Shown one piece after another: positions 33,077 through 43,544 of a DNA stretch of 64,000 bases (position 1 is its first letter; each line of letters starts with the position of its first letter). The translations under genes were made by a program, and so were the position numbers. This stretch comes from Spirochaetia bacterium. Its GTDB lineage: Bacteria > Spirochaetota > Spirochaetia > SZUA-6 > Bin103. The notes under the pieces were generated by a model. The model searched no databases and was not told the DNA's origin. It worked only from the letters and a program-made list of their open reading frames with translations. Location of the stretch: positions 1,152,001 through 1,216,000 of the forward strand of contig CBDBDQ010000005.1 of NCBI GenBank assembly GCA_965203905.1, read 5' to 3'.

Positions 33077-33694
33077 GTGGCAGGTGGCGCCGGCAGCGAG
33101 CGCGTGGCGGGGGTGATCCTGGCCGCCGGCGCCTCCCAGCGGCTGGGCCGGCCCAAGCAGTTGCTGCGCTACCGCAACGAGACCCTGATCCACCGCACCG
33201 CACGCCTGGCGCGCGCCGCTGGCCTGACACCGCTGCACGTGGTGGTGGGCTACCGCGGCCGCGAGGTGGCCGCCGGCCTCGGCGACCTCGGCCCAGCCGT
33301 GGCGCTGGTGAGCAATCCGGACTGGAGCGCCGGCATGGGCGGCTCGCTGGCGCGCGGGATCGCCAGCCTGCCGGACGCCGCCGGCGCCGCGCTGGTGCTG
33401 GTGACCGATCAGCCGCACCTCTCCGGAGCGGTGCTCGAGGCGATCCTGGAGCGCTACCGGAGCGACGCGGCGCCGCTGGTCGCCTGCCGCTACGGCAGCG
33501 GCGCCCTCGGCGTCCCGGCGCTGTTCGCGCGCCGCTTCTTTCCGGAGCTGGCCGCACTGGCCGGCGACCGCGGCGCCCGCGCCCTGTTTACGCGCCACGC
33601 CGCCGCTCTGACCACGGTCAGCTTCCCGGCCGGCGATGCCGACATCGACACCCCGGCCGACGCCGAGACCCTCGCCGCCGAGGGATCAAAATAA
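33077..33694 (+). CDS. mocA: Molybdenum cofactor cytidylyltransferase-like NTP transferase
   Basis: ILAAGASQRLGRPKQLL, GMGGSL, DQP, GD.GAR, DIDTP.D; follows XdhC. Confidence 0.8.
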   Translation: MAGGAGSERVAGVILAAGASQRLGRPKQLLRYRNETLIHRTARLARAAGLTPLHVVVGYRGREVAAGLGDLGPAVALVSNPDWSAGMGGSLARGIASLPDAAGAALVLVTDQPHLSGAVLEAILERYRSDAAPLVACRYGSGALGVPALFARRFFPELAALAGDRGARALFTRHAAALTTVSFPAGDADIDTPADAETLAAEGSK

Positions 33695-33708
33695 GCGCCC
33701 CCTGCCTG

Positions 33709-33738
33709 TTGCCGGACGTGCGCGCGGAAGGATACACT
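33709..33738 (+). promoter_or_regulatory. Sigma70-like promoter for the structured RNA / DUF3800 unit
   Basis: TTGCCG (33709-33714), 18-nt spacer, TACACT (33733-33738). Confidence 0.5.
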
Positions 33739-33744
33739 TGCTGT

Positions 33745-33815
33745 AACGCGCCTAGGTTGAGCCGCCATGCGTCTCACGCGGGACCTTCCGGTCCCGCCCT
33801 AAGGCGCTATTTTTT
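33745..33815 (+). ncRNA. Candidate structured RNA (three-way junction plus U-tract) upstream of the DUF3800 gene
   Basis: P1 33748-33756/33798-33807, P2 33758-33765/33769-33776, P3 33778-33785/33790-33797, then TATTTTTT. Confidence 0.6.
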
Positions 33816-33817
33816 CC

Positions 33818-34696
33818 ATGAGAATCTGCTACTTGGACGAGTCCGGGACGCCAGCACTGTCGGGGCAGACTAACCACTTTGTGTTCTTGGGTCTTTCCAT
33901 ACTAGATAGTTCTTGGAAGAACAGAGACGCTGAAATCACGGGGATCAAGCGTAGGTATCAACTTGAGGGGAGTGAGATCCATACCGCATGGCTCGCAAGA
34001 CGTTACCAAGAGCAAGAGGTTATACCAGCATTCCAAGACCTGACATACTACGAACGCCGTACTGCCGTGCAAACGGAACGGAACACGCGCTTGGCCCGTC
34101 GGACGGCGATCCGTGGCCGGAATCAGGTCTCCACGCTCCGCAAGAACTTCGCGAAGACGGATGCCTACATTCACCTAACGCACACGGAACGACACTCATT
34201 GCTGTCCGAGTTAGCTGATGCGGTGAACGGGTGGAACGACTGCTTCCTGTTTGTGGAAGCGACCGACAAGACGGCGTTCGCCCGAGTCCCGCCAAGGTCG
34301 CCACCCTTCGAGGAAGGATTCACACAGGTCGTTAGCCGATTTCACAGATGCCTAGAAGCGGAGCAGCAGACCGGTTTGCTGGTTCAGGACAACAACCCGA
34401 CCGTCTCGCGGCGCCTCACGGATCTGATGCGACGCTTTCACGAAGAGGGCACGCGGTGGACGTCGCTACCGAGAATTGTCGAAACCCCACTCTTCGTTGA
34501 CAGTCAACTCACGAGTTTGGTTCAGATGTCGGACCTTTGCGCGTACGCTACCCGCAGGTACCTCGAAAACAGCGAGAGGACGTTGTTCGACAAGATTTCA
34601 TCGCGCTTTTACAGGGTAGGCGACCGCATGGTTGGAGCCAGACACTACGTCGGACCCTCGCGACGGTGTAGCTGCGAATTCTGCCGGCAGCACTAG
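33818..34696 (+). CDS. DUF3800 domain protein
   Basis: N-terminal YLDESG, EIH, C-terminal FVDS...LVQMSDLCAY; lower GC than flanks. Confidence 0.85.
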   Translation: MRICYLDESGTPALSGQTNHFVFLGLSILDSSWKNRDAEITGIKRRYQLEGSEIHTAWLARRYQEQEVIPAFQDLTYYERRTAVQTERNTRLARRTAIRGRNQVSTLRKNFAKTDAYIHLTHTERHSLLSELADAVNGWNDCFLFVEATDKTAFARVPPRSPPFEEGFTQVVSRFHRCLEAEQQTGLLVQDNNPTVSRRLTDLMRRFHEEGTRWTSLPRIVETPLFVDSQLTSLVQMSDLCAYATRRYLENSERTLFDKISSRFYRVGDRMVGARHYVGPSRRCSCEFCRQH

Positions 34697-34764
34697 CTGA
34701 CCACTGCTTCCGTCAGCATTGCGGAAAGGTTCGGCCATGGCAACGTGATAAGAGCCTGTCTGAG

Positions 34765-34820
34765 AGGATTGCGTCGGTCGGCCCCTCGACGGCAGCGGCA
34801 ATCCGTAGCGGCTCAGACAT
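34765..34820 (-). pseudogene. N-terminal remnant of a TOPRIM-like (DUF4276-type) partner of the upstream ATPase
   Basis: MSEPLRIAAAVEGPTD overlaps the ATPase stop; the frame ends after about 35 codons. Confidence 0.55.
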
Positions 34821-35975
34821 CCGGGACGCCGCCGAGATGGCCCATCACCCAGAGGCGTGACAACGTCCAGCCCTGCTTCGCCTTCTTGAGCAGATCATCG
34901 TCGACCGTTACCCGGCGAACCGAAGTGCGGCCGGAACTGGTCCGCGACACCGTAAACAACCGCACGCGGTCATCCTGCAGAGGCAGTCCATCCAGCACGA
35001 GCGGATTGTGAGTGGTAAGAAGTATCTGACGCGGCTCGCTGGCGTCCAGATACCATACGCACAGATGCTCGATGAGTGATCGGCGTTATCCACGGCGCAC
35101 AGCGACGGACTCTCTTCGTGGCCGGAAACGACAGCAAGAAACAGAGCGTACAAGGCTCCTTCAGAAGCGTCATATCCAGACAAGAGACTGCGGTCCTTGC
35201 GCATGAACCGATCGCGGAACCGAATCACGGTATCGGTAGATGCTGCTGCCGGCGAGAGTGGGAGCCGGCCTGCTGAGCCCGCACCGAAAGAAGCCGCCCA
35301 ATCGACCAGACCAAGTACATCGCGACAAACCCGTTGGCTGTGTTCATCCTGGCGCCGTTGTTTGAGCAGCTCCAGGATCGCTCGCGGAAGATCCCCTCCA
35401 GACAGTCCCAACGGTTGTCTCGGTTGGGTCTCTGGCGCGACTCCTCGCAAGACCGGAGTGGTCGGGAAAAAAATGACGTAGCCGTGCAACAACTTCAGCA
35501 GATCAAGTGCGTCTCCATGGGTGACATCGACTGCCCTCAATGCGGCCATTCCCCGGTCCGGATTGCCCTTCTTCTTCGTTGCGGGAGAACGTCCAACCAA
35601 GGGACCGTCGGGGCCTTCCCAATACTCTGTCTTGAATCTCCAGGCGGGCGCCGGATCCTTGAGCGGATTGTGCAACGAGACCTCATACTTCGCTTGCGCA
35701 GCGTATGCGCCAAAAGAGATATGAGACGGAATCTTCTCACCGCGTGTTGCTGGAAACGCCGACTTGTACAATCGTGGAACACCCGGACGTACGCCACGCG
35801 CCAAGAGACTCTGATCGTCGACCTTGCCGTCCGCCGCCGCCGAGAGCACCCCCATGGCTTCCAGCAAGTTGCTCTTTCCGCTGCCATTGGCGCCGATGAA
35901 GACATTGACCATTCCAAGCTCAACGGTCACGTCCTCCAGCGACTTGAATGTTCTGACAGACAGGCTCTCGAGCAT
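34813..35975 (-). pseudogene. AAA/ABC-type ATPase (AAA_15/AAA_21-like), frameshifted near 35076
   Basis: FKSL, GANGSGKSN, SEGAL, VDNADH, then frame switch; LTTHNP and the C-terminus continue in another frame to the stop at 34813. Confidence 0.8.
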
Positions 35976-36201
35976 ACGGATGATCCAGAAAAAACCGGGC
36001 ACCCACCGAAGTCGTGGAGGTGTTCGGGCTGTCCGGCCACAGTATACCACGCGCCCGCACCTTCCGGTTGCGGAGACCAGCCTGAGGGGGTTTGGCCTGG
36101 ACCTCGGTCGACCTATAGCTGCGGCGGCGAGTTTGCTGAGCGTGGCGATGTTCCTTGGATTGGGGCTGGTCAGCTTCGGTCTGATGCTGTACCAGTGAGC
36201 C

Positions 36202-38397: not shown

Positions 38398-38949
38398 TCA
38401 CCACAGGCCGACCTCCGTGCCGGCGCGCCCCAGCTCCTTCCGGTACTCCTCGACAATGCTCTTCAGCGGGTCGGCGGCGCCGAGATGTGCCTTGAGGTCG
38501 CTGCGGAGGAACCCGAACGGTTTGTTCAGGAACGCTTCCTTGTCTTCGCTCGCCGCGTAGTCGGCGTAGCTCTCCACGATCCTGAGGGCCCGGTACAGCA
38601 GGCCGGTGACGCGTCGGCGCTCGCGCTGATGCCGGGTGAGGTAATAGAGGATGTCGGCCCGATCCACCGCCAGCAGGTTGCGCTCCGCCTCCGCCTCGTC
38701 GGTGTAGAAACCGGTGATGAGACCGTGCCACAGCGTCACGTAGATCTTCTGATCGAACTTCCGGCACGGCTTGCAATAGAGTTCCTCGGTCAGCACGCCG
38801 GTGGTGATCCCTGCGGCGGAGACCACGTCGCCCACGCGGTAGGTATCCAGGGTCGAGTCGAGGCTCTTGGTCTGCGTGGATGGTACCGGTTGACCGCACT
38901 GCACGCAGTCGATCGGCTCGGGAAAGACCAGGGTGTCGAACATGCCCAT
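38398..38949 (-). CDS. Hypothetical protein with zinc-ribbon motifs
   Basis: MGMFDT start, CVQC and CKPC, QTK.L...L..Y.VGD. Confidence 0.75.
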   Translation of the reverse strand: MGMFDTLVFPEPIDCVQCGQPVPSTQTKSLDSTLDTYRVGDVVSAAGITTGVLTEELYCKPCRKFDQKIYVTLWHGLITGFYTDEAEAERNLLAVDRADILYYLTRHQRERRRVTGLLYRALRIVESYADYAASEDKEAFLNKPFGFLRSDLKAHLGAADPLKSIVEEYRKELGRAGTEVGLW

Positions 38950-39214
38950 CCCGCCATCTTGCCGCGCCGTGCCTCACCCTGGCAACAGGCTCCGAGCGGC
39001 GGCAAGCGGCGGCGGAGCGAACTTCGGCGCCGAAGTATAGTGACGCATAATGCAAGTACGAGATTGCGGTTGTTGCGTTGCGCGCCCTGAGCCGAGGCGA
39101 GTTGCACGATAGTTGGCACGGAGTGTGTGCGGTGGTCGTTCCGTTCCGAGCGCGTCCCTGGTGCGGAACGCGGGAATGGCGGAACGAGAGCGAGTAGGCA
39201 GGCGACGGTGCCGG

Positions 39215-40150
39215 TCAGGCCGGCAGGTGCCAGCCGTTGGGGCCGCGGACGGCGAGGCCGCGCTGTTCGAGAGTTTGGAGGGCGAGACCGAGACGGGCGT
39301 TGTTGACGCGCAGGCGTTGCCGCAGGGCGGTCCTGGAGAGCGGCTGGCCGGCGCTGCGGAGAGCGGCGCGCACCGCCTCGGCGAGTGGGGGCGGCGGGGC
39401 GGCAGCACTGTCGACGAGCAGCGAGAGGGGCTGGTCGGCGCCGCCGGAGAGGCGCAGCAGGAGCGGGTCGGGAGCGGGAGCGGAGCGATGCTCGACGGTG
39501 AGTTGGAGACGGTCGTCGGCACGCCGCACCAGGTAGCAGGCAGAGTCGGTCCAGGCATGCAGATCGGAGGAGCCGCGCAGGGACTGGCCGAGATTGCGGC
39601 GCGAGCGCTTGGCCAAGTGGTGGACGAGAACCACAGCGAGTTGATAGCGGCGGTTGATGGCGCGCAGAAAGCCGAGCAGGGAAGAGATGTCTGAAGCGCT
39701 GTTCTCGTCGAGACAATGAAGTCGGACCAGGGGATCCAACAGCAGTAGTGCCGGGCGGATCCGTTGCACGGTCTGGTCGAGAGCGAGTTGGTCGCGCTCG
39801 GTATCGAGGCGCAAGCGGTCAGCAGTGACGGCGTGCAGATCGAGGCGAGCCAGATCCAGGCCGCGGTGGCGGCACAGGTGGGCGACACGGTCGCGGACGC
39901 GGGGCAGAGCATCCTCGGCGAGGTAGACCAGAGCGGGTCCGGTGGCCTCGACCGGGAAGCGCCCGAGGGCCGGGGTGCCGGACGCGACCGAGACCGCGAG
40001 GTCAAGGCCGAGCCAGGATTTCCCAACTTTGGGGCTGCCGCCGATCACGCCGACAGCCGCGGTCGTCCAGAGGTCGCGCACCAGCCACTGGGGAGCGTCG
40101 GGCTGGGGATCGATGGCATGCACCGGGACGGTGGGCAGCGGTTTGGTCAT
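39215..40150 (-). CDS. AAA_25 / RSF1010 RepA-like (RecA-fold) helicase-like ATPase with C-terminal HTH
   Basis: WLVRDL, GGSPKVGKS, YLAED, LLLDPL, DEN, LVHH..K, RGSS. Confidence 0.85.
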   Translation of the reverse strand: MTKPLPTVPVHAIDPQPDAPQWLVRDLWTTAAVGVIGGSPKVGKSWLGLDLAVSVASGTPALGRFPVEATGPALVYLAEDALPRVRDRVAHLCRHRGLDLARLDLHAVTADRLRLDTERDQLALDQTVQRIRPALLLLDPLVRLHCLDENSASDISSLLGFLRAINRRYQLAVVLVHHLAKRSRRNLGQSLRGSSDLHAWTDSACYLVRRADDRLQLTVEHRSAPAPDPLLLRLSGGADQPLSLLVDSAAAPPPPLAEAVRAALRSAGQPLSRTALRQRLRVNNARLGLALQTLEQRGLAVRGPNGWHLPA

Positions 40151-40950
40151 GGCCACAGGTACTTGCGAGCGGCGATCACGTCACCGGCACTGACGGTGGT
40201 GGCGGGGGTCTTGGCGGCGTGGTGCAGCGCCGCCAGAGCCAAGCGGTCGATGGCGCGCAGGTTGCCGCGGCTCATCTCGAAGATGGTTTCCTGAGCGTCG
40301 TCGTCGAAGGGATTGGTGCGAGCGCCGGCGAGGGTGCAGCGATGTTCGAGGTAGGCGCGGGTCTCATCGCGGGACAGCAGGCGCAGTTCGGCGTAATGCG
40401 CCAGGCGCTGCGCGATGGCGGCTTGTTCGGGGCGTCGCAGGAGCAGTCTCAGGTGTGGCTGGCCGGCGAGCACGAGGGACACGACGAGGCGCGAATCCAT
40501 GGAGAAGCTGGTCAGGAGGCGCAGCATGGCCAACGCTTCGGGGCGCAGGTCATGGGCCTCGTCAAGCAGGATGACCGGGCGCATGCCGTCGCTGGCGGTG
40601 TGTTCGAAAGCGTCCTGCAGCTTGCGCACCAGAGCGGGATAGATGCCGGTGGGAGAGAGGCCGCAGGCGACCGCGATTTCCTTGCACAGGTCACGCTTGG
40701 AGAGGCCGGTGACCTTGACGTAATGGACCTGGAAGCGCACCTCCGGCAGAGCGGCGACGAGCATGCGCAAGGCGACGGTCTTGCCGGTGCCGGCGGGAGC
40801 GATGAGGGCGGCGCTCATGCGCTCCTGCACCGCCGCGGTGAGTGCGGCGGCGACCTGGGCCTGAGGTTCGAGCGGAAAGCACTCGCGCACGGTCAACTCG
40901 CGGGTAAAGGGGGTCTTGCGAAAGCCCAGTGGGCTGAGGTCGTGGCTCAT
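40147..40950 (-). CDS. ExeA-family AAA+ ATPase (transposition helper type)
   Basis: LGF..TPF, APAGTGKT, LLDEAH, LVLAGQP, SRGNLRAI. Confidence 0.88.
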   Translation of the reverse strand: MSHDLSPLGFRKTPFTRELTVRECFPLEPQAQVAAALTAAVQERMSAALIAPAGTGKTVALRMLVAALPEVRFQVHYVKVTGLSKRDLCKEIAVACGLSPTGIYPALVRKLQDAFEHTASDGMRPVILLDEAHDLRPEALAMLRLLTSFSMDSRLVVSLVLAGQPHLRLLLRRPEQAAIAQRLAHYAELRLLSRDETRAYLEHRCTLAGARTNPFDDDAQETIFEMSRGNLRAIDRLALAALHHAAKTPATTVSAGDVIAARKYLWP

Positions 40951-42341
40951 GGCTGCTGCTCCTGGTCCTGTTGGTTGTCGTGCGGGTCGCGGTAGCCGCC
41001 GTCGGGGTCGACCAGCGGGCGGGTGTCGTTGGCGTAGGCGATGCCGGCCGCAGTGGCGGGGAGTTCCGCGCCGTCCTCGTCGGCGCTCGGTTGCGGCGCG
41101 CTGCCGGAGCCGCGCGGTGAGGTCGCGTTGGCGTGAGGATCCAGTTCGGCCAGCTCGATCATGCGCCCCTGATGCTGAACCCACAGCCGCCCGTCGAGTA
41201 CGTGGCGCGCCACCTCGACCCAACAGCGGGCGCTGCGGCGCGGCGCTTCCCACAACCGACCGTCGGCCTTGATGACGTGATCGTTGGAGACCTTGTGCAT
41301 GGCGCGCACCACGAAGCGGCGATACAGATCGGCTTCGTCGCTGGGAAAGCGCAACTCCCGTCCCTGCTCCCAGCGCTGGCGCGGGGTGTCCTTGCCGAGC
41401 GTCTCGTGCGGGGTGTCGTTGTAGCGGTTCAGAAAGTGGCGCAGGCGCAGCGTGAGTGCCTCGCAAGCGGGGTCCACGTCGGCGGCACCGTCGAAGGAAC
41501 GCAGCACCTGATCGTAAGCGGTGCGATGGAAGCGCTCGATGGCGCCGTGGCCCTCGGGATACCTGGTGGTGCCGTGAATCAGCAAGGTGCCCAGGCCGCC
41601 CTGGACCACGGCCAGGGTGTCCTTGGAGATGAAGCCCGGGCCTTTGTCCAGGTAGTACAGATCCGCAGTGCCATGGTGCATGACCACCTCGTAGAGGCCG
41701 CGCAGGAACAGCTCGCTGGACTCCGCGGTGCCCACCAGCACCTCCAGGCCGTAGCGGGTGGCATCGTCGAGGAAGAACAGCGCCACCCGCCGCCGCCGCG
41801 CCGCGCCGGCGCGGAAGTGCTTGCCGTCGGCAAGCACGCACTGCATGCGCTCGGCATAGCGCCAGCGCCGCGTGTCCGCTTCGTGTTTGTGCGGTCGCCG
41901 GCGCGTCGGCAGGCCCATCCGCCGACAGGCGCGCCACACGGTAGTGCGGTCGATCCTGGCGTCGACCGGGATGATGCCGCGCTCGCGCGCTCGGCGCACC
42001 AGTTCCGGTGTCGAGGCGCGCGCATCACGTTGCTTCTCGGTACGCAGAAAGGTGACCAGTTGCGGACTCAGTGCCAGTGAGGTGGTGGTCAGGGTGCGCT
42101 GCTGCGGCTCCAGCGCGGTGAGCTTGTCGCTCGCCCAGGCTGCGCGCCAGCGTTGCAGGGTACGCACGCTGATCCGCACCGGGCGACCGTCCAGGTCGAC
42201 ACGCGGTGCGCGGGCAACCTTGCGTACCGCGGCGCCCGCAGGACACCCGCGCAATACCAGGGCCTCCACCTCGGCGACCACCGAGTAGCGCAGCAACGCG
42301 GTGGCCGAGACCGCTAACGGGGGACGTGTTGGATCGTTCAT
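40947..42341 (-). CDS. DDE-type integrase/transposase (Mu-like)
   Basis: HTH ISVRTLQRW, ADGKH, FLDDATRY, YLDKG, GHGAIERF, YN..PH. Confidence 0.88.
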   Translation of the reverse strand: MNDPTRPPLAVSATALLRYSVVAEVEALVLRGCPAGAAVRKVARAPRVDLDGRPVRISVRTLQRWRAAWASDKLTALEPQQRTLTTTSLALSPQLVTFLRTEKQRDARASTPELVRRARERGIIPVDARIDRTTVWRACRRMGLPTRRRPHKHEADTRRWRYAERMQCVLADGKHFRAGAARRRRVALFFLDDATRYGLEVLVGTAESSELFLRGLYEVVMHHGTADLYYLDKGPGFISKDTLAVVQGGLGTLLIHGTTRYPEGHGAIERFHRTAYDQVLRSFDGAADVDPACEALTLRLRHFLNRYNDTPHETLGKDTPRQRWEQGRELRFPSDEADLYRRFVVRAMHKVSNDHVIKADGRLWEAPRRSARCWVEVARHVLDGRLWVQHQGRMIELAELDPHANATSPRGSGSAPQPSADEDGAELPATAAGIAYANDTRPLVDPDGGYRDPHDNQQDQEQQP

Positions 42342-42370
42342 GCGCCTACCGTAGCGCCGTACGGGAGGAT

Positions 42371-43195
42371 TCAAATAAGCGCTTTCGTGGCCGGCGGTGC
42401 CCGTCCCCGAGGATGAGCGACAACCCCCTGTTCCCGCGCCTCGGAACGGTCAATCGCGGCCACTATCCAGCTCTTGCCGGTCTGCTCCCAACGCGCCACC
42501 AGCCGCGGACGCGGTGGCCCCCACAGGTCGCTGACCGCACCAGCCGCAGCCATGCGGTCACCCAGCGTCGCGCTGACCGCCAGCGCCAGCAGCACCGCCA
42601 TGATCGCTGCGCCGCGGCGCTGCCAACTGCGCCCCCAGCGCTGCGCCTCCGCGAGCACGGTCATGGTCGCCACTCCCAGCCGCGTCGCGATCTGCTCTCG
42701 CTGCCGCTGGTCCAACTCCGGGCTGACCCCGGTCAACCGACCGGCCAGCTCCAGGCGCCGTCCCTGGATACGCCGGCAGGGCGTACTCAACGCTTGCCAC
42801 CAATGCTGCTCAGCTGGCCACAGCTTCCCCTGCTTCGCATCCTGCGCGGCCCCGAACAGCGTCACCTGCCACTGCGGTCGTTTGCCGGTTGCGTCCAACA
42901 GCACGTCTCCGCCTGCGCTGTAGGGCACCACCGCCACGCGTCCGTAGGGGTAGTGTCCGGGCGGATACAGGGTGTAGCGCCGGCCCCCATGCACCCCGCA
43001 CCCCACCACCGCTAGCGGATAGCGGGGCCCGGTCTTGCGCTCGCGGTAATGATCGACGAAGATGGCACACGTCTGCTCCCCCGTGGCGTAGACACACCGC
43101 GACGGCAGCACGGCGCGCAAGGTTCCGTCCTGATCCGCCTGGTAGTTCGTCGTCGCGAACGGGAGCGCGTGTGCCTCGGTTGCACCCTCGGACAC
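42371..43195 (-). CDS. Hypothetical transposon-associated protein with Cys/His-rich N-terminus
   Basis: 274-aa ORF co-oriented and immediately upstream of the transposase; C...C..H.R.RKTGP...C..H...TLYPPGH.PYGR. Confidence 0.65.
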   Translation of the reverse strand: MSEGATEAHALPFATTNYQADQDGTLRAVLPSRCVYATGEQTCAIFVDHYRERKTGPRYPLAVVGCGVHGGRRYTLYPPGHYPYGRVAVVPYSAGGDVLLDATGKRPQWQVTLFGAAQDAKQGKLWPAEQHWWQALSTPCRRIQGRRLELAGRLTGVSPELDQRQREQIATRLGVATMTVLAEAQRWGRSWQRRGAAIMAVLLALAVSATLGDRMAAAGAVSDLWGPPRPRLVARWEQTGKSWIVAAIDRSEAREQGVVAHPRGRAPPATKALI

Positions 43196-43544
43196 TCGCT
43201 GCCTCTCGTGCCTCGGCGGGCGGTTGTCTTCCGCTCGCCGAGGCCGCCTAAAAGTGAAGCCCGCAGCATTTACCTGCTGCGGGCTTCACACTTTACGCCC
43301 CTGTCGCTCCTCCGCCTACGTCATCGTCACTGCAACCGGTACGCCCTCACCCCGCCCTTGGGCGCGCAACGCAATAGCGGTGTTGCGACCCGGAGAGTTC
43401 ATTCGACGAATCAGGAGTGATGCAACCCACAGGCATTCGCGGAGGCTCTCGCAGCCGTTGCCGACGCTCCGGCGGAGGTTGCGGACCTGATGAACGGCCG
43501 ATGGCGCCTTGCGCAGCGCGGCGCGCGAGACGCACTATAGGGGC

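Follow-up and report, generated by a model that had tools for sequence, protein, structure and literature searches.

Genes and proteins of the element

The DNA analysed here, referred to as the window, is a stretch of 64,000 nucleotides from a Spirochaetia bacterium (contig CBDBDQ010000005.1, positions 1,152,001 to 1,216,000). Within it, positions 39071-43376 hold, on the minus strand, a DDE transposon of 4,306 bp whose four genes encode (i) a protein with a conserved Cys/His motif, (ii) a DDE transposase, (iii) an AAA+ ATPase of the AAA_22 family, and (iv) a RecA-fold ATPase of the AAA_25 family that resembles the RepA helicase of plasmid RSF1010 (Table 1). The original prediction, made from the letters of the sequence, had described these four genes with the last three coupled by ATGA overlaps, and all of this is found in the sequence: the overlaps were read directly at the transposase/AAA_22 and AAA_22/AAA_25 junctions. 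The first gene ends 29 nucleotides before the probable transposase start at ATG 42341, with no overlap there.

The transposase and the AAA_22 protein are matched in PHROGs, a collection with no curated cut-off, by phrog_310 (transposase, 2e-24) and phrog_296 (“DNA transposition protein”, 1e-31), respectively, and the AAA_25 protein matches primase/helicase families of the same collection. Pfam detects a weak rve_3 alone in the transposase (0.0032), and relatives of the enzyme carry HTH_28, HTH_32, and rve_3. The nearest NCBIfam model is IS481 (6.4e-27, 94.8 bits versus a cut-off of 224), followed by ISNCY and IS3. The proposed catalytic triad D183, D243, and E280 has DDE-like spacing and is invariant in 16/16 transposases, and a motif in the C-terminal tail is likewise conserved. 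Neither single-sequence nor profile searches of the PDB returned a significant match between the transposase and a solved structure. The AAA_22 protein is matched below cut-off by the NCBIfam model TIGR03015 (ExeA-like, 5.6e-31), and its family profile found nothing significant in the PDB. Pfam and NCBIfam scans revealed no resolvase or TnsA-like nuclease among the four open reading frames (ORFs).

Conservation within the family is highest for the AAA_25 and AAA_22 proteins, with identities to the window copy of 52-78% and 55-77%, respectively; the corresponding ranges are 43-71% for the transposase and 29-78% for the first protein.

Ends, terminal repeats, and target-site duplication

The true ends, 39071 and 43376, emerge from an alignment of the four copies of the element in the host genome. 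An empty site in a genome of the same genus (L051, G008:C88), in which the two flanks of the window copy are joined with a single GCGGT, backs the same ends, and public contigs from two studies (runs X1 and X8) depart from the window exactly at 39071 and 43376/43377. The segments 39041-39070 and 43377-43413 are therefore host flank that lies outside the element; the original prediction was right about the presence of an element and had drawn its borders too wide, at 39041 and 43413. The extra GCAAC motifs that it listed divide along the same line: some are subterminal sites within the element that are conserved in the family, while others belong to the host flank and are present in the empty site. 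The predicted 15-bp inverted repeat enclosing the genes is present as an exact repeat (39073-39087 and 43360-43374). It lies inside 17-bp terminal repeats that mismatch at position 2: across the family, the second base of the left end can be A, G, or C, whereas the right end invariably reads CA-3′. At the DNA level, conservation across the family comprises the terminal repeat plus approximately 60 bp at the left end or 110 bp at the right end. The right-end subterminal GTTGCA site is probably a second binding site for the transposase.

Aligning the copies also established the target duplication, which is 5 bp long (GCGGT). Thirteen insertions have both ends on long sequence; their flanking pentamers are exact duplicates in six, match at four of five positions in three and at three of five in one, and are absent in three. 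For two of these last three, the right-flank pentamer is found 3-4 nucleotides further out on the left. In L010 and L018, the pentamer matching the right-flank duplication is displaced outward from the left terminal repeat by 4 and 3 nucleotides, respectively, as though a few foreign bases had come along at the left end. Asymmetric processing may account for this offset and for the variable second base of the left end. No target motif or attachment site is common to the 13 insertion sites compared. In three of the four copies in this genome, the duplication consists of ACCG plus one base.

Table 1. Features of the transposon and its immediate borders, in window coordinates
Feature	Position	Strand	Remarks
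Target-site duplication GCGGT, 5 bp, beside right end	39066..39070	.	Same pentamer at 43377-43381; present once in the L051 empty site
Right-end terminal inverted repeat	39071..39087	-	Gene orientation ...GGGCGCGCAACGCAACA-3′; kept in 15/15 aligned family members
Right-end subterminal GTTGCA site	39100..39107	-	Conserved block “cTGCAACC” in right-end alignment; counterpart GGTTGCAG block at left end
GTTCC/GGAAC palindrome between AAA_25 stop and right end	39137..39186	.	Invariant CGTTCC..CAC and CTCGGAACGGAAC in 15/15
AAA_25 RepA-like RecA-fold ATPase, 313 aa from GTG 40156; 311 aa from ATG 40150	39215..40156	-	Pfam AAA_25 7.7e-34
AAA_22 (MuB/TniB/TnsC/ExeA-type) AAA+ ATPase, 267 aa	40147..40950	-	Pfam AAA_22 1.3e-21
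DDE transposase, 475 aa from TTG 42374; probable ATG 42341	40947..42374	-	phrog_310; invariant triad
First gene, 274 aa, conserved Cys/His motif	42371..43195	-	No known family or fold
Left-end hairpin, 15-bp stem, then TTTT in gene orientation	43254..43289	-	-23.3 kcal/mol, z -7.6
Left-end subterminal GGTTGCAG-type site	43330..43339	-	Conserved block, columns 41-48 of left-end alignment
Left-end terminal inverted repeat	43360..43376	-	Gene orientation 5′-TATTGCGTTGCGCGCCC; aligned left ends
Target-site duplication GCGGT, 5 bp, beside left end	43377..43381	.	Copy alignment and empty site

Gene order and distribution of the family

The four genes occur in the same order in 17/22 genome loci and 29/32 metagenome loci (46/54 together), counting loci that are anchored on the first gene and reach at least 4 kb beyond its start. 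The gene order proposed as a search pattern thus recurs in many phyla, and in all 46 loci the helicase-like gene is conserved together with the transposase. Judged by protein coverage, seven of these eight exceptions are missing some or all of the downstream genes. Three of the seven were examined in detail (L092, L026, and L117): the metagenome locus L092 has an AAA_22 gene interrupted by a DDE_Tnp_1 (IS4/IS5-type) transposase gene (L092:2628-4394), L026 is an internal-deletion derivative, and L117 is described below.

Loci with the first gene are found in metagenomes and in genomes titled Spirochaetia, Gemmatimonadales, Chloroflexota, Nitrospiraceae, Dehalococcoidia, Ignavibacteriales, Myxococcales, and others. 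Relatives of the transposase number more than 1,500. Where family members are named at all in their sources, they are called “transposase” or “hypothetical”. A collection of 72,556 plasmid records contains distant relatives only, the best transposase match being 26% identical, and viral contigs likewise contain none but distant relatives. The recurrence of the same ends, gene order, and 5-bp duplication in dozens of loci is far beyond chance.

In agreement with the expectation that the element belongs to a little-described class, it is a real mobile element, and full-text literature searches, together with passages of two Tn7 surveys (PMC8649781, PMC10293859), yielded no account of transposons that encode a RepA-type helicase or a primase, with ISfinder and TnCentral lying outside the comparison. 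Provisionally, the elements are regarded as an unnamed, widespread, and so far undescribed family of DDE transposons.

Helicase, primase, or both in the fourth position

The AAA_25 protein scores 117.5 bits against the Pfam gathering cut-off of 27, and its sole significant solved relative is the RSF1010 RepA helicase (1g8y; 5.6e-11 with the family profile and 1.2e-6 with the single sequence). The Walker A residues K46 and S47, the Walker B residue D141, and E151, H179, H180, and R194 are invariant in 13/13 AAA_25 proteins. A C-terminal tail of about 80 residues shows weak matches to GntR (0.011) and MarR (0.021), both below cut-off, and is possibly winged-helix-like.

The most informative relatives are those in which the content of the fourth position differs. 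L117 is an element of 4,214 bp with the same ends, left-end hairpin, and first three genes, whose fourth gene encodes a DnaG-type primase (CHC2 zinc finger/Zn_ribbon_DnaG, 1.8e-10; Toprim, 7.7e-9) that replaces the helicase. L034, L175, and L176 have all four genes plus a primase homologous (48% identical) to that of L117, and L172 shares the 3′ part of these helicase-plus-primase elements. The position following the AAA_22 gene can therefore hold a helicase, a primase, or both, which is the strongest argument that the module in this position serves DNA replication and not target choice. At E≤0.001, the family of the element-type primase comprises 802 members, most of them on contigs of up to about 6 kb. 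One homologue (P0495), 63% identical to the L034 primase, comes from a cultured organism named Desulfosarcina ovata subsp. sediminis in its source.

Between the AAA_25 stop codon and the right end lies a GTTCC/GGAAC palindrome, each arm of which is similar to the terminal repeat but has GTTCC where the repeat has GTTGC. Among 43 helicase-bearing elements with a recognisable right end, at least one half of the palindrome is present in 42 and both halves in 35 (strict pattern); the primase-only element L117 has neither half. Folded as single-stranded DNA, the palindrome is only moderately stable (-16.7 kcal/mol, z -2.6). Because its bases are invariant, and covariation is hence absent, it is a candidate site for a protein that binds double-stranded DNA. 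From its position and conservation, this site is probably where the AAA_25 helicase is loaded.

The first gene

The Cys/His motif of the first protein consists of C34, C43, H49, C66, and H69. C43, C66, and H69 are invariant in 76/76 members, and C34 and H49 are conserved in the closer set, which suggests a zinc site. With an alignment of these 76 sequences, AlphaFold predicts an N-terminal beta domain followed by a helical domain (predicted local distance difference test score, pLDDT, 87.4; predicted template modelling score, pTM, 0.83); a shallow alignment of 26 sequences yielded a poor model (pLDDT 52.8). The Foldseek comparison proposed for this protein found no match in the PDB, and none in BFVD was convincing; the best result of a wide VIA-align search had a Z of 4.4 and covered the helical part only. 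Pfam returns nothing for the window protein itself, and no consistent Pfam family is found across the 76 members. Relatives of the protein number at least 223 in one database, and a profile search at E≤0.001 retrieved 840 cluster representatives; the first gene thus adds a large protein family with a confidently predicted, unmatched fold.

The suggestion that the first gene encodes a target selector analogous to TniQ is not supported. TniQ (PF06527) is detected at E≤1 in 0/76 members and in none of the four ORFs, no fold match was obtained, and no attachment site is common to the insertion sites compared. A predicted complex of the first protein with the AAA_22 protein scored 0.06 relative to a mark of 0.32, which is evidence neither way.

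Short non-autonomous derivatives keep both ends and the first gene only (L026:114-1686, L096:158-1740, and L110:1264-2486). L026 and L096 are 98% identical and lie in different flanks, from which it follows that the derivative itself has moved. L110 is an independent derivative that also retains the palindrome. That the first gene was retained twice hints that the gene, or DNA within it, is needed in cis.

Copies and mobility in the host genome

The host genome (8.0 Mb in five contigs) carries four copies of the element at 100, 95, 95, and 88% identity. Copies B and C are both 4,321 bp long and differ by a single base, yet they sit in different flanks, which shows that the element transposed very recently. 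Uninterrupted protein alignments are obtained for all four genes in each of the four copies, and the window copy is whole and probably active.

Copy D (G000:C5:7723712-7729707; L004/L005), which is 88% identical to the window copy, is interrupted at the hairpin, about 94 bp from its left end, by an insertion of 1.68 kb. Judged by its motif, the 465-residue ORF in this insertion is presumably an IS110-type transposase. A second AAA_22 gene of the genome (C5, about 5.30 Mb) is part of a different Mu-like element (G000:C5:5294000-5308000; L055) that combines a 549-residue transposase (HTH_32, rve, and Mu-transpos_C) with a 415-residue AAA_22 ATPase and is adjoined by a Y2_Tnp (IS91-type) gene.

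A proposed replication module for transposition and its alternatives

On balance, the fourth gene appears to provide a replication module for copy-and-paste transposition, a reading of moderate confidence. The transposase would bind the GTTGC repeats at both ends and join the 3′ ends of the element to the target with a 5-bp stagger, as in Mu, Tn7, and Tn5053. The AAA_22 protein, like MuB, TnsC, and TniB, would hold the target DNA and activate the transposase, probably via the C-terminal tail of the latter. The element would then have to be copied, because it has neither a TnsA-type second nuclease nor a resolvase, yet simple insertions accumulate. As a hexameric helicase, the RepA-like protein would start this copying without the host primosome, acting on the forked strand-transfer product or during copy-out, and would probably be loaded via its putative winged-helix tail at the palindrome beside the right end. 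In sister lineages, a DnaG-type primase would serve the same end, in addition to the helicase or in its place, and the first protein may be a zinc-dependent factor that binds DNA or assists assembly and is required in cis. Consistent with such a scheme, the family always carries a RepA-type ATPase, a primase, or both. The role in replicative transposition originally envisaged for the second ATPase gains support from the relatives in which a DnaG-type primase accompanies or replaces the helicase, while the role in target choice envisaged alongside it is the less likely of the two.

Three kinds of known elements frame this reading. Replicative transposition of Mu requires the host PriA-DnaB primosome at the strand-transfer fork, RSF1010 replicates by means of RepA and RepB′ independently of host DnaB and DnaG, and IS3-type elements move by copy-out/paste-in. 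More generally, transposons of the Mu, Tn7, and Tn5053 kind are thought to depend on the host for replication or repair of the strand-transfer product. A widespread family whose members always encode a helicase of replicative type, in some cases together with a primase, would alter this view, as copying could then depend on proteins of the element rather than on the host. Such a family would open a direct test of replication start at a transposition fork and might yield a compact, broad-host “copy-and-paste” insertion system; the primase homologue in cultured Desulfosarcina ovata subsp. sediminis may make experiments possible.

Several observations weigh against a replication module. The well-defined copies are all simple insertions with their own duplication, which is not expected from intramolecular replication of the Shapiro type; the route would accordingly be copy-out/paste-in or replicative transposition with resolution of cointegrates by the host. 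The winged-helix interpretation of the AAA_25 tail depends on the sub-cut-off matches, and the co-occurrence of palindrome and helicase depends on a single helicase-less element, L117. Matches to TnsB, TnsC, and Mu-type models are weak: the transposase reaches 0.085 against TnsB in the PDB and 3.9e-4 with the PADLOC V-K TnsB model, and the AAA_22 protein 0.48-0.8 against TnsC in the PDB and 1.1e-4 with TnsC_V-K of PADLOC. We infer Mu-like chemistry instead from the DDE pattern, the PHROGs matches, and the 5-bp duplication. Among the four genomic copies, two are co-directional with replication and two are head-on, an uninformative split without strand bias (direction assigned by cumulative GC skew, with the origin near 1.5 Mb and the terminus near 5.8 Mb). 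Finally, the circular forms proposed as a check were looked for in the contigs of four runs, in which neither a right-to-left joint nor another replication intermediate was seen; assembled contigs drop rare forms, and this negative is therefore not evidence of absence.

A bolder version, which we hold as a tentative possibility, is that the family owns a replication-start module. This would comprise an internal, origin-like palindrome and a RepA-type helicase that loads itself, joined in some lineages by a DnaG-type primase. With it, the element would replicate without the host primosome, either in place or as a free circle. If true, it would be a prokaryotic “self-priming” cut-and-join transposon and a bridge between transposons and small plasmids, and self-replication would help explain the spread of the family over many phyla.

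A route through a self-replicating circle appears unlikely. In such a route, the element would leave the chromosome or be copied out of it, replicate transiently like a small IncQ-type plasmid with the palindrome as origin, the AAA_25 protein as both initiator and helicase, and its own primase in some lineages, and be re-inserted by the DDE transposase. Helicase and primase together would equal in kind the RepA/RepB′ pair of RSF1010, the palindrome arms resemble the element ends and stand head to head, a layout that would be expected for loading of a double hexamer, and occurrence in many phyla fits independence from host replication factors. However, the missing circle joint counts here as well, with the same reservation about rare forms, relatives are essentially absent from the plasmid records and viral contigs, no separate initiator gene is present, and most elements are without a primase.

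There is also a small chance that the AAA_25 protein is a target selector or regulator which, like TnsE or TniQ, marks particular targets (a fork, a single-stranded gap, or a sequence that it binds) or governs transposition immunity, and signals to the AAA_22 protein. Target choice in Tn7-type systems involves additional proteins (PMC10293859, PMC8649781); single-stranded DNA is bound by RecA-fold ATPases, the AAA_25 tail weakly resembles a DNA-binding winged helix, and the ACCG-plus-one-base duplication is shared by three of the four genomic copies. Against target selection, the 13 insertion sites have no common motif and the four copies no strand bias. The replacement or supplementation of the helicase by a DnaG-type primase would be hard to explain, and the conserved, binding-site-like palindrome lies inside the element rather than in its targets.

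That the AAA_25 gene is mere cargo, helping host or element in some other way (e.g., against phages or competing elements), is very improbable: Tn7-like elements do carry very varied cargo (PMC8649781) and AAA_25 genes occur in many plasmid and phage contexts, but here the gene is fixed in position and orientation, translationally coupled, among the best conserved of the element, and present in 46/54 loci, 4.3 kb leaves no room for other cargo, and PADLOC defence-system models match neither the AAA_25 helicase nor the first protein.

Left-end hairpin and surroundings of the insertion

The left-end hairpin folds far better than expected from its composition, with 0/200 shuffles folding as well. 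It is kept in 9/16 aligned left ends, with a compensatory change in L028, and is absent from the list of a simple terminator scan since its T run comprises only four T residues. Its probable function is that of a terminator that blocks read-through from outside. A promoter scan revealed no promoter-like site. Contigs from RNA libraries that are 90-95% alike span the AAA_25, AAA_22, and transposase genes; carry-over of DNA is possible, so expression is not claimed.

Judged by eye, the insertion locus (38990-39070 and 43377-43500) appears to contain the remnant 3′ end of a PIN-type toxin gene followed by the start of a ribbon-helix-helix-like gene, and the intact arrangement of these two genes is present in the same-genus empty site (L051, G008:C88). 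Of the other copies, B is placed at the start of another ribbon-helix-helix-like ORF and C in the loop of a GC-rich palindrome. A PIN domain is found in two homologues of the first protein, which may be gene calls that cross insertion junctions.

A 183-residue ORF with two CxxC pairs (window 38398-38949) lies immediately beyond the right end and does not belong to the element; it has no family match in Pfam, NCBIfam, or PHROGs and is missing from the corresponding region of the same-genus genome G010. Further away, window positions 33500-36000 have a G+C content of 0.58-0.64 compared to about 0.70 and include a long ORF with an AAA-ATPase-like motif; this region may be another acquired island.

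Sequencing runs X8, X9, X11, X12, X14, and X15, which are labelled as sponge or coral metagenomes, contain 0.63-0.70 of the sampled words of the stretch. Contigs of run X8 include the whole element at 95-99% likeness in another flank.

Comparison with known systems

Among the closest known systems is the Tn5053/Tn402 family (tniA-tniB-tniQ-tniR), including the TnsA-less clade with type V-K CRISPR-associated transposons. In common with these, the element combines a DDE transposase, a translationally linked AAA_22-type ATPase, and a small protein, and it has a 5-bp duplication, terminal plus subterminal repeats, and no TnsA. Unlike Tn5053/Tn402, it has no TniQ (0/76 members of the first-protein family), no TniR resolvase domain, and no res site; a RepA-type helicase is the fixed fourth gene, and a zinc-motif protein comes first. 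It further differs in having practically no plasmid relatives and no preferred insertion site among 13. With the Tn7 family, the element shares the 5-bp duplication; TnsA is absent from its ORFs and domains, as are TniQ and a common insertion site.

Similarities to phage Mu (MuA/MuB) include the 5-bp duplication and the best PHROGs profiles of the transposase and the AAA_22 protein, both of which are phage transposition proteins. The first catalytic Asp of the transposase lies in a D-G-x-x-F context, as in MuA. Unlike Mu, the element is 4.3 kb long with four genes and contains no phage structural or lysis genes, and it encodes its own helicase, whereas Mu recruits host PriA and DnaB. Pfam Mu-transpos_C is undetected in its transposase, although the same domain is detected in the L055 element of the same genome.

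Among insertion sequences, IS481 and IS3 provide the nearest NCBIfam models, and relatives of the transposase have the same HTH_28/HTH_32 plus rve_3 layout. However, IS481 is a single gene of about 1 kb, whereas the element has four genes in 4.3 kb and remains at 94.8 bits relative to the cut-off of 224. IS21 (IstA/IstB) similarly pairs a DDE enzyme with a coupled AAA+ helper; in the element this helper is not IstB_IS21, which is absent from the eight Pfam families that match the AAA_22 protein at E≤0.01. IS481, IS3, and IS21 have no counterpart to the helicase, primase, or zinc-motif protein. A copy-out/paste-in route of the IS3 type would give the helicase a role.

RSF1010 (IncQ) provides the parallel for the fourth gene: the AAA_25 protein is homologous to RepA, and related elements add a primase. 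In contrast to RSF1010, the genes reside inside a DDE transposon, the helicase has an extra C-terminal tail of about 80 residues, and there is no RepC-type initiator and there are no iterons. The primase of the elements is DnaG-type (CHC2 finger plus Toprim), whereas RepB′ is of another fold.

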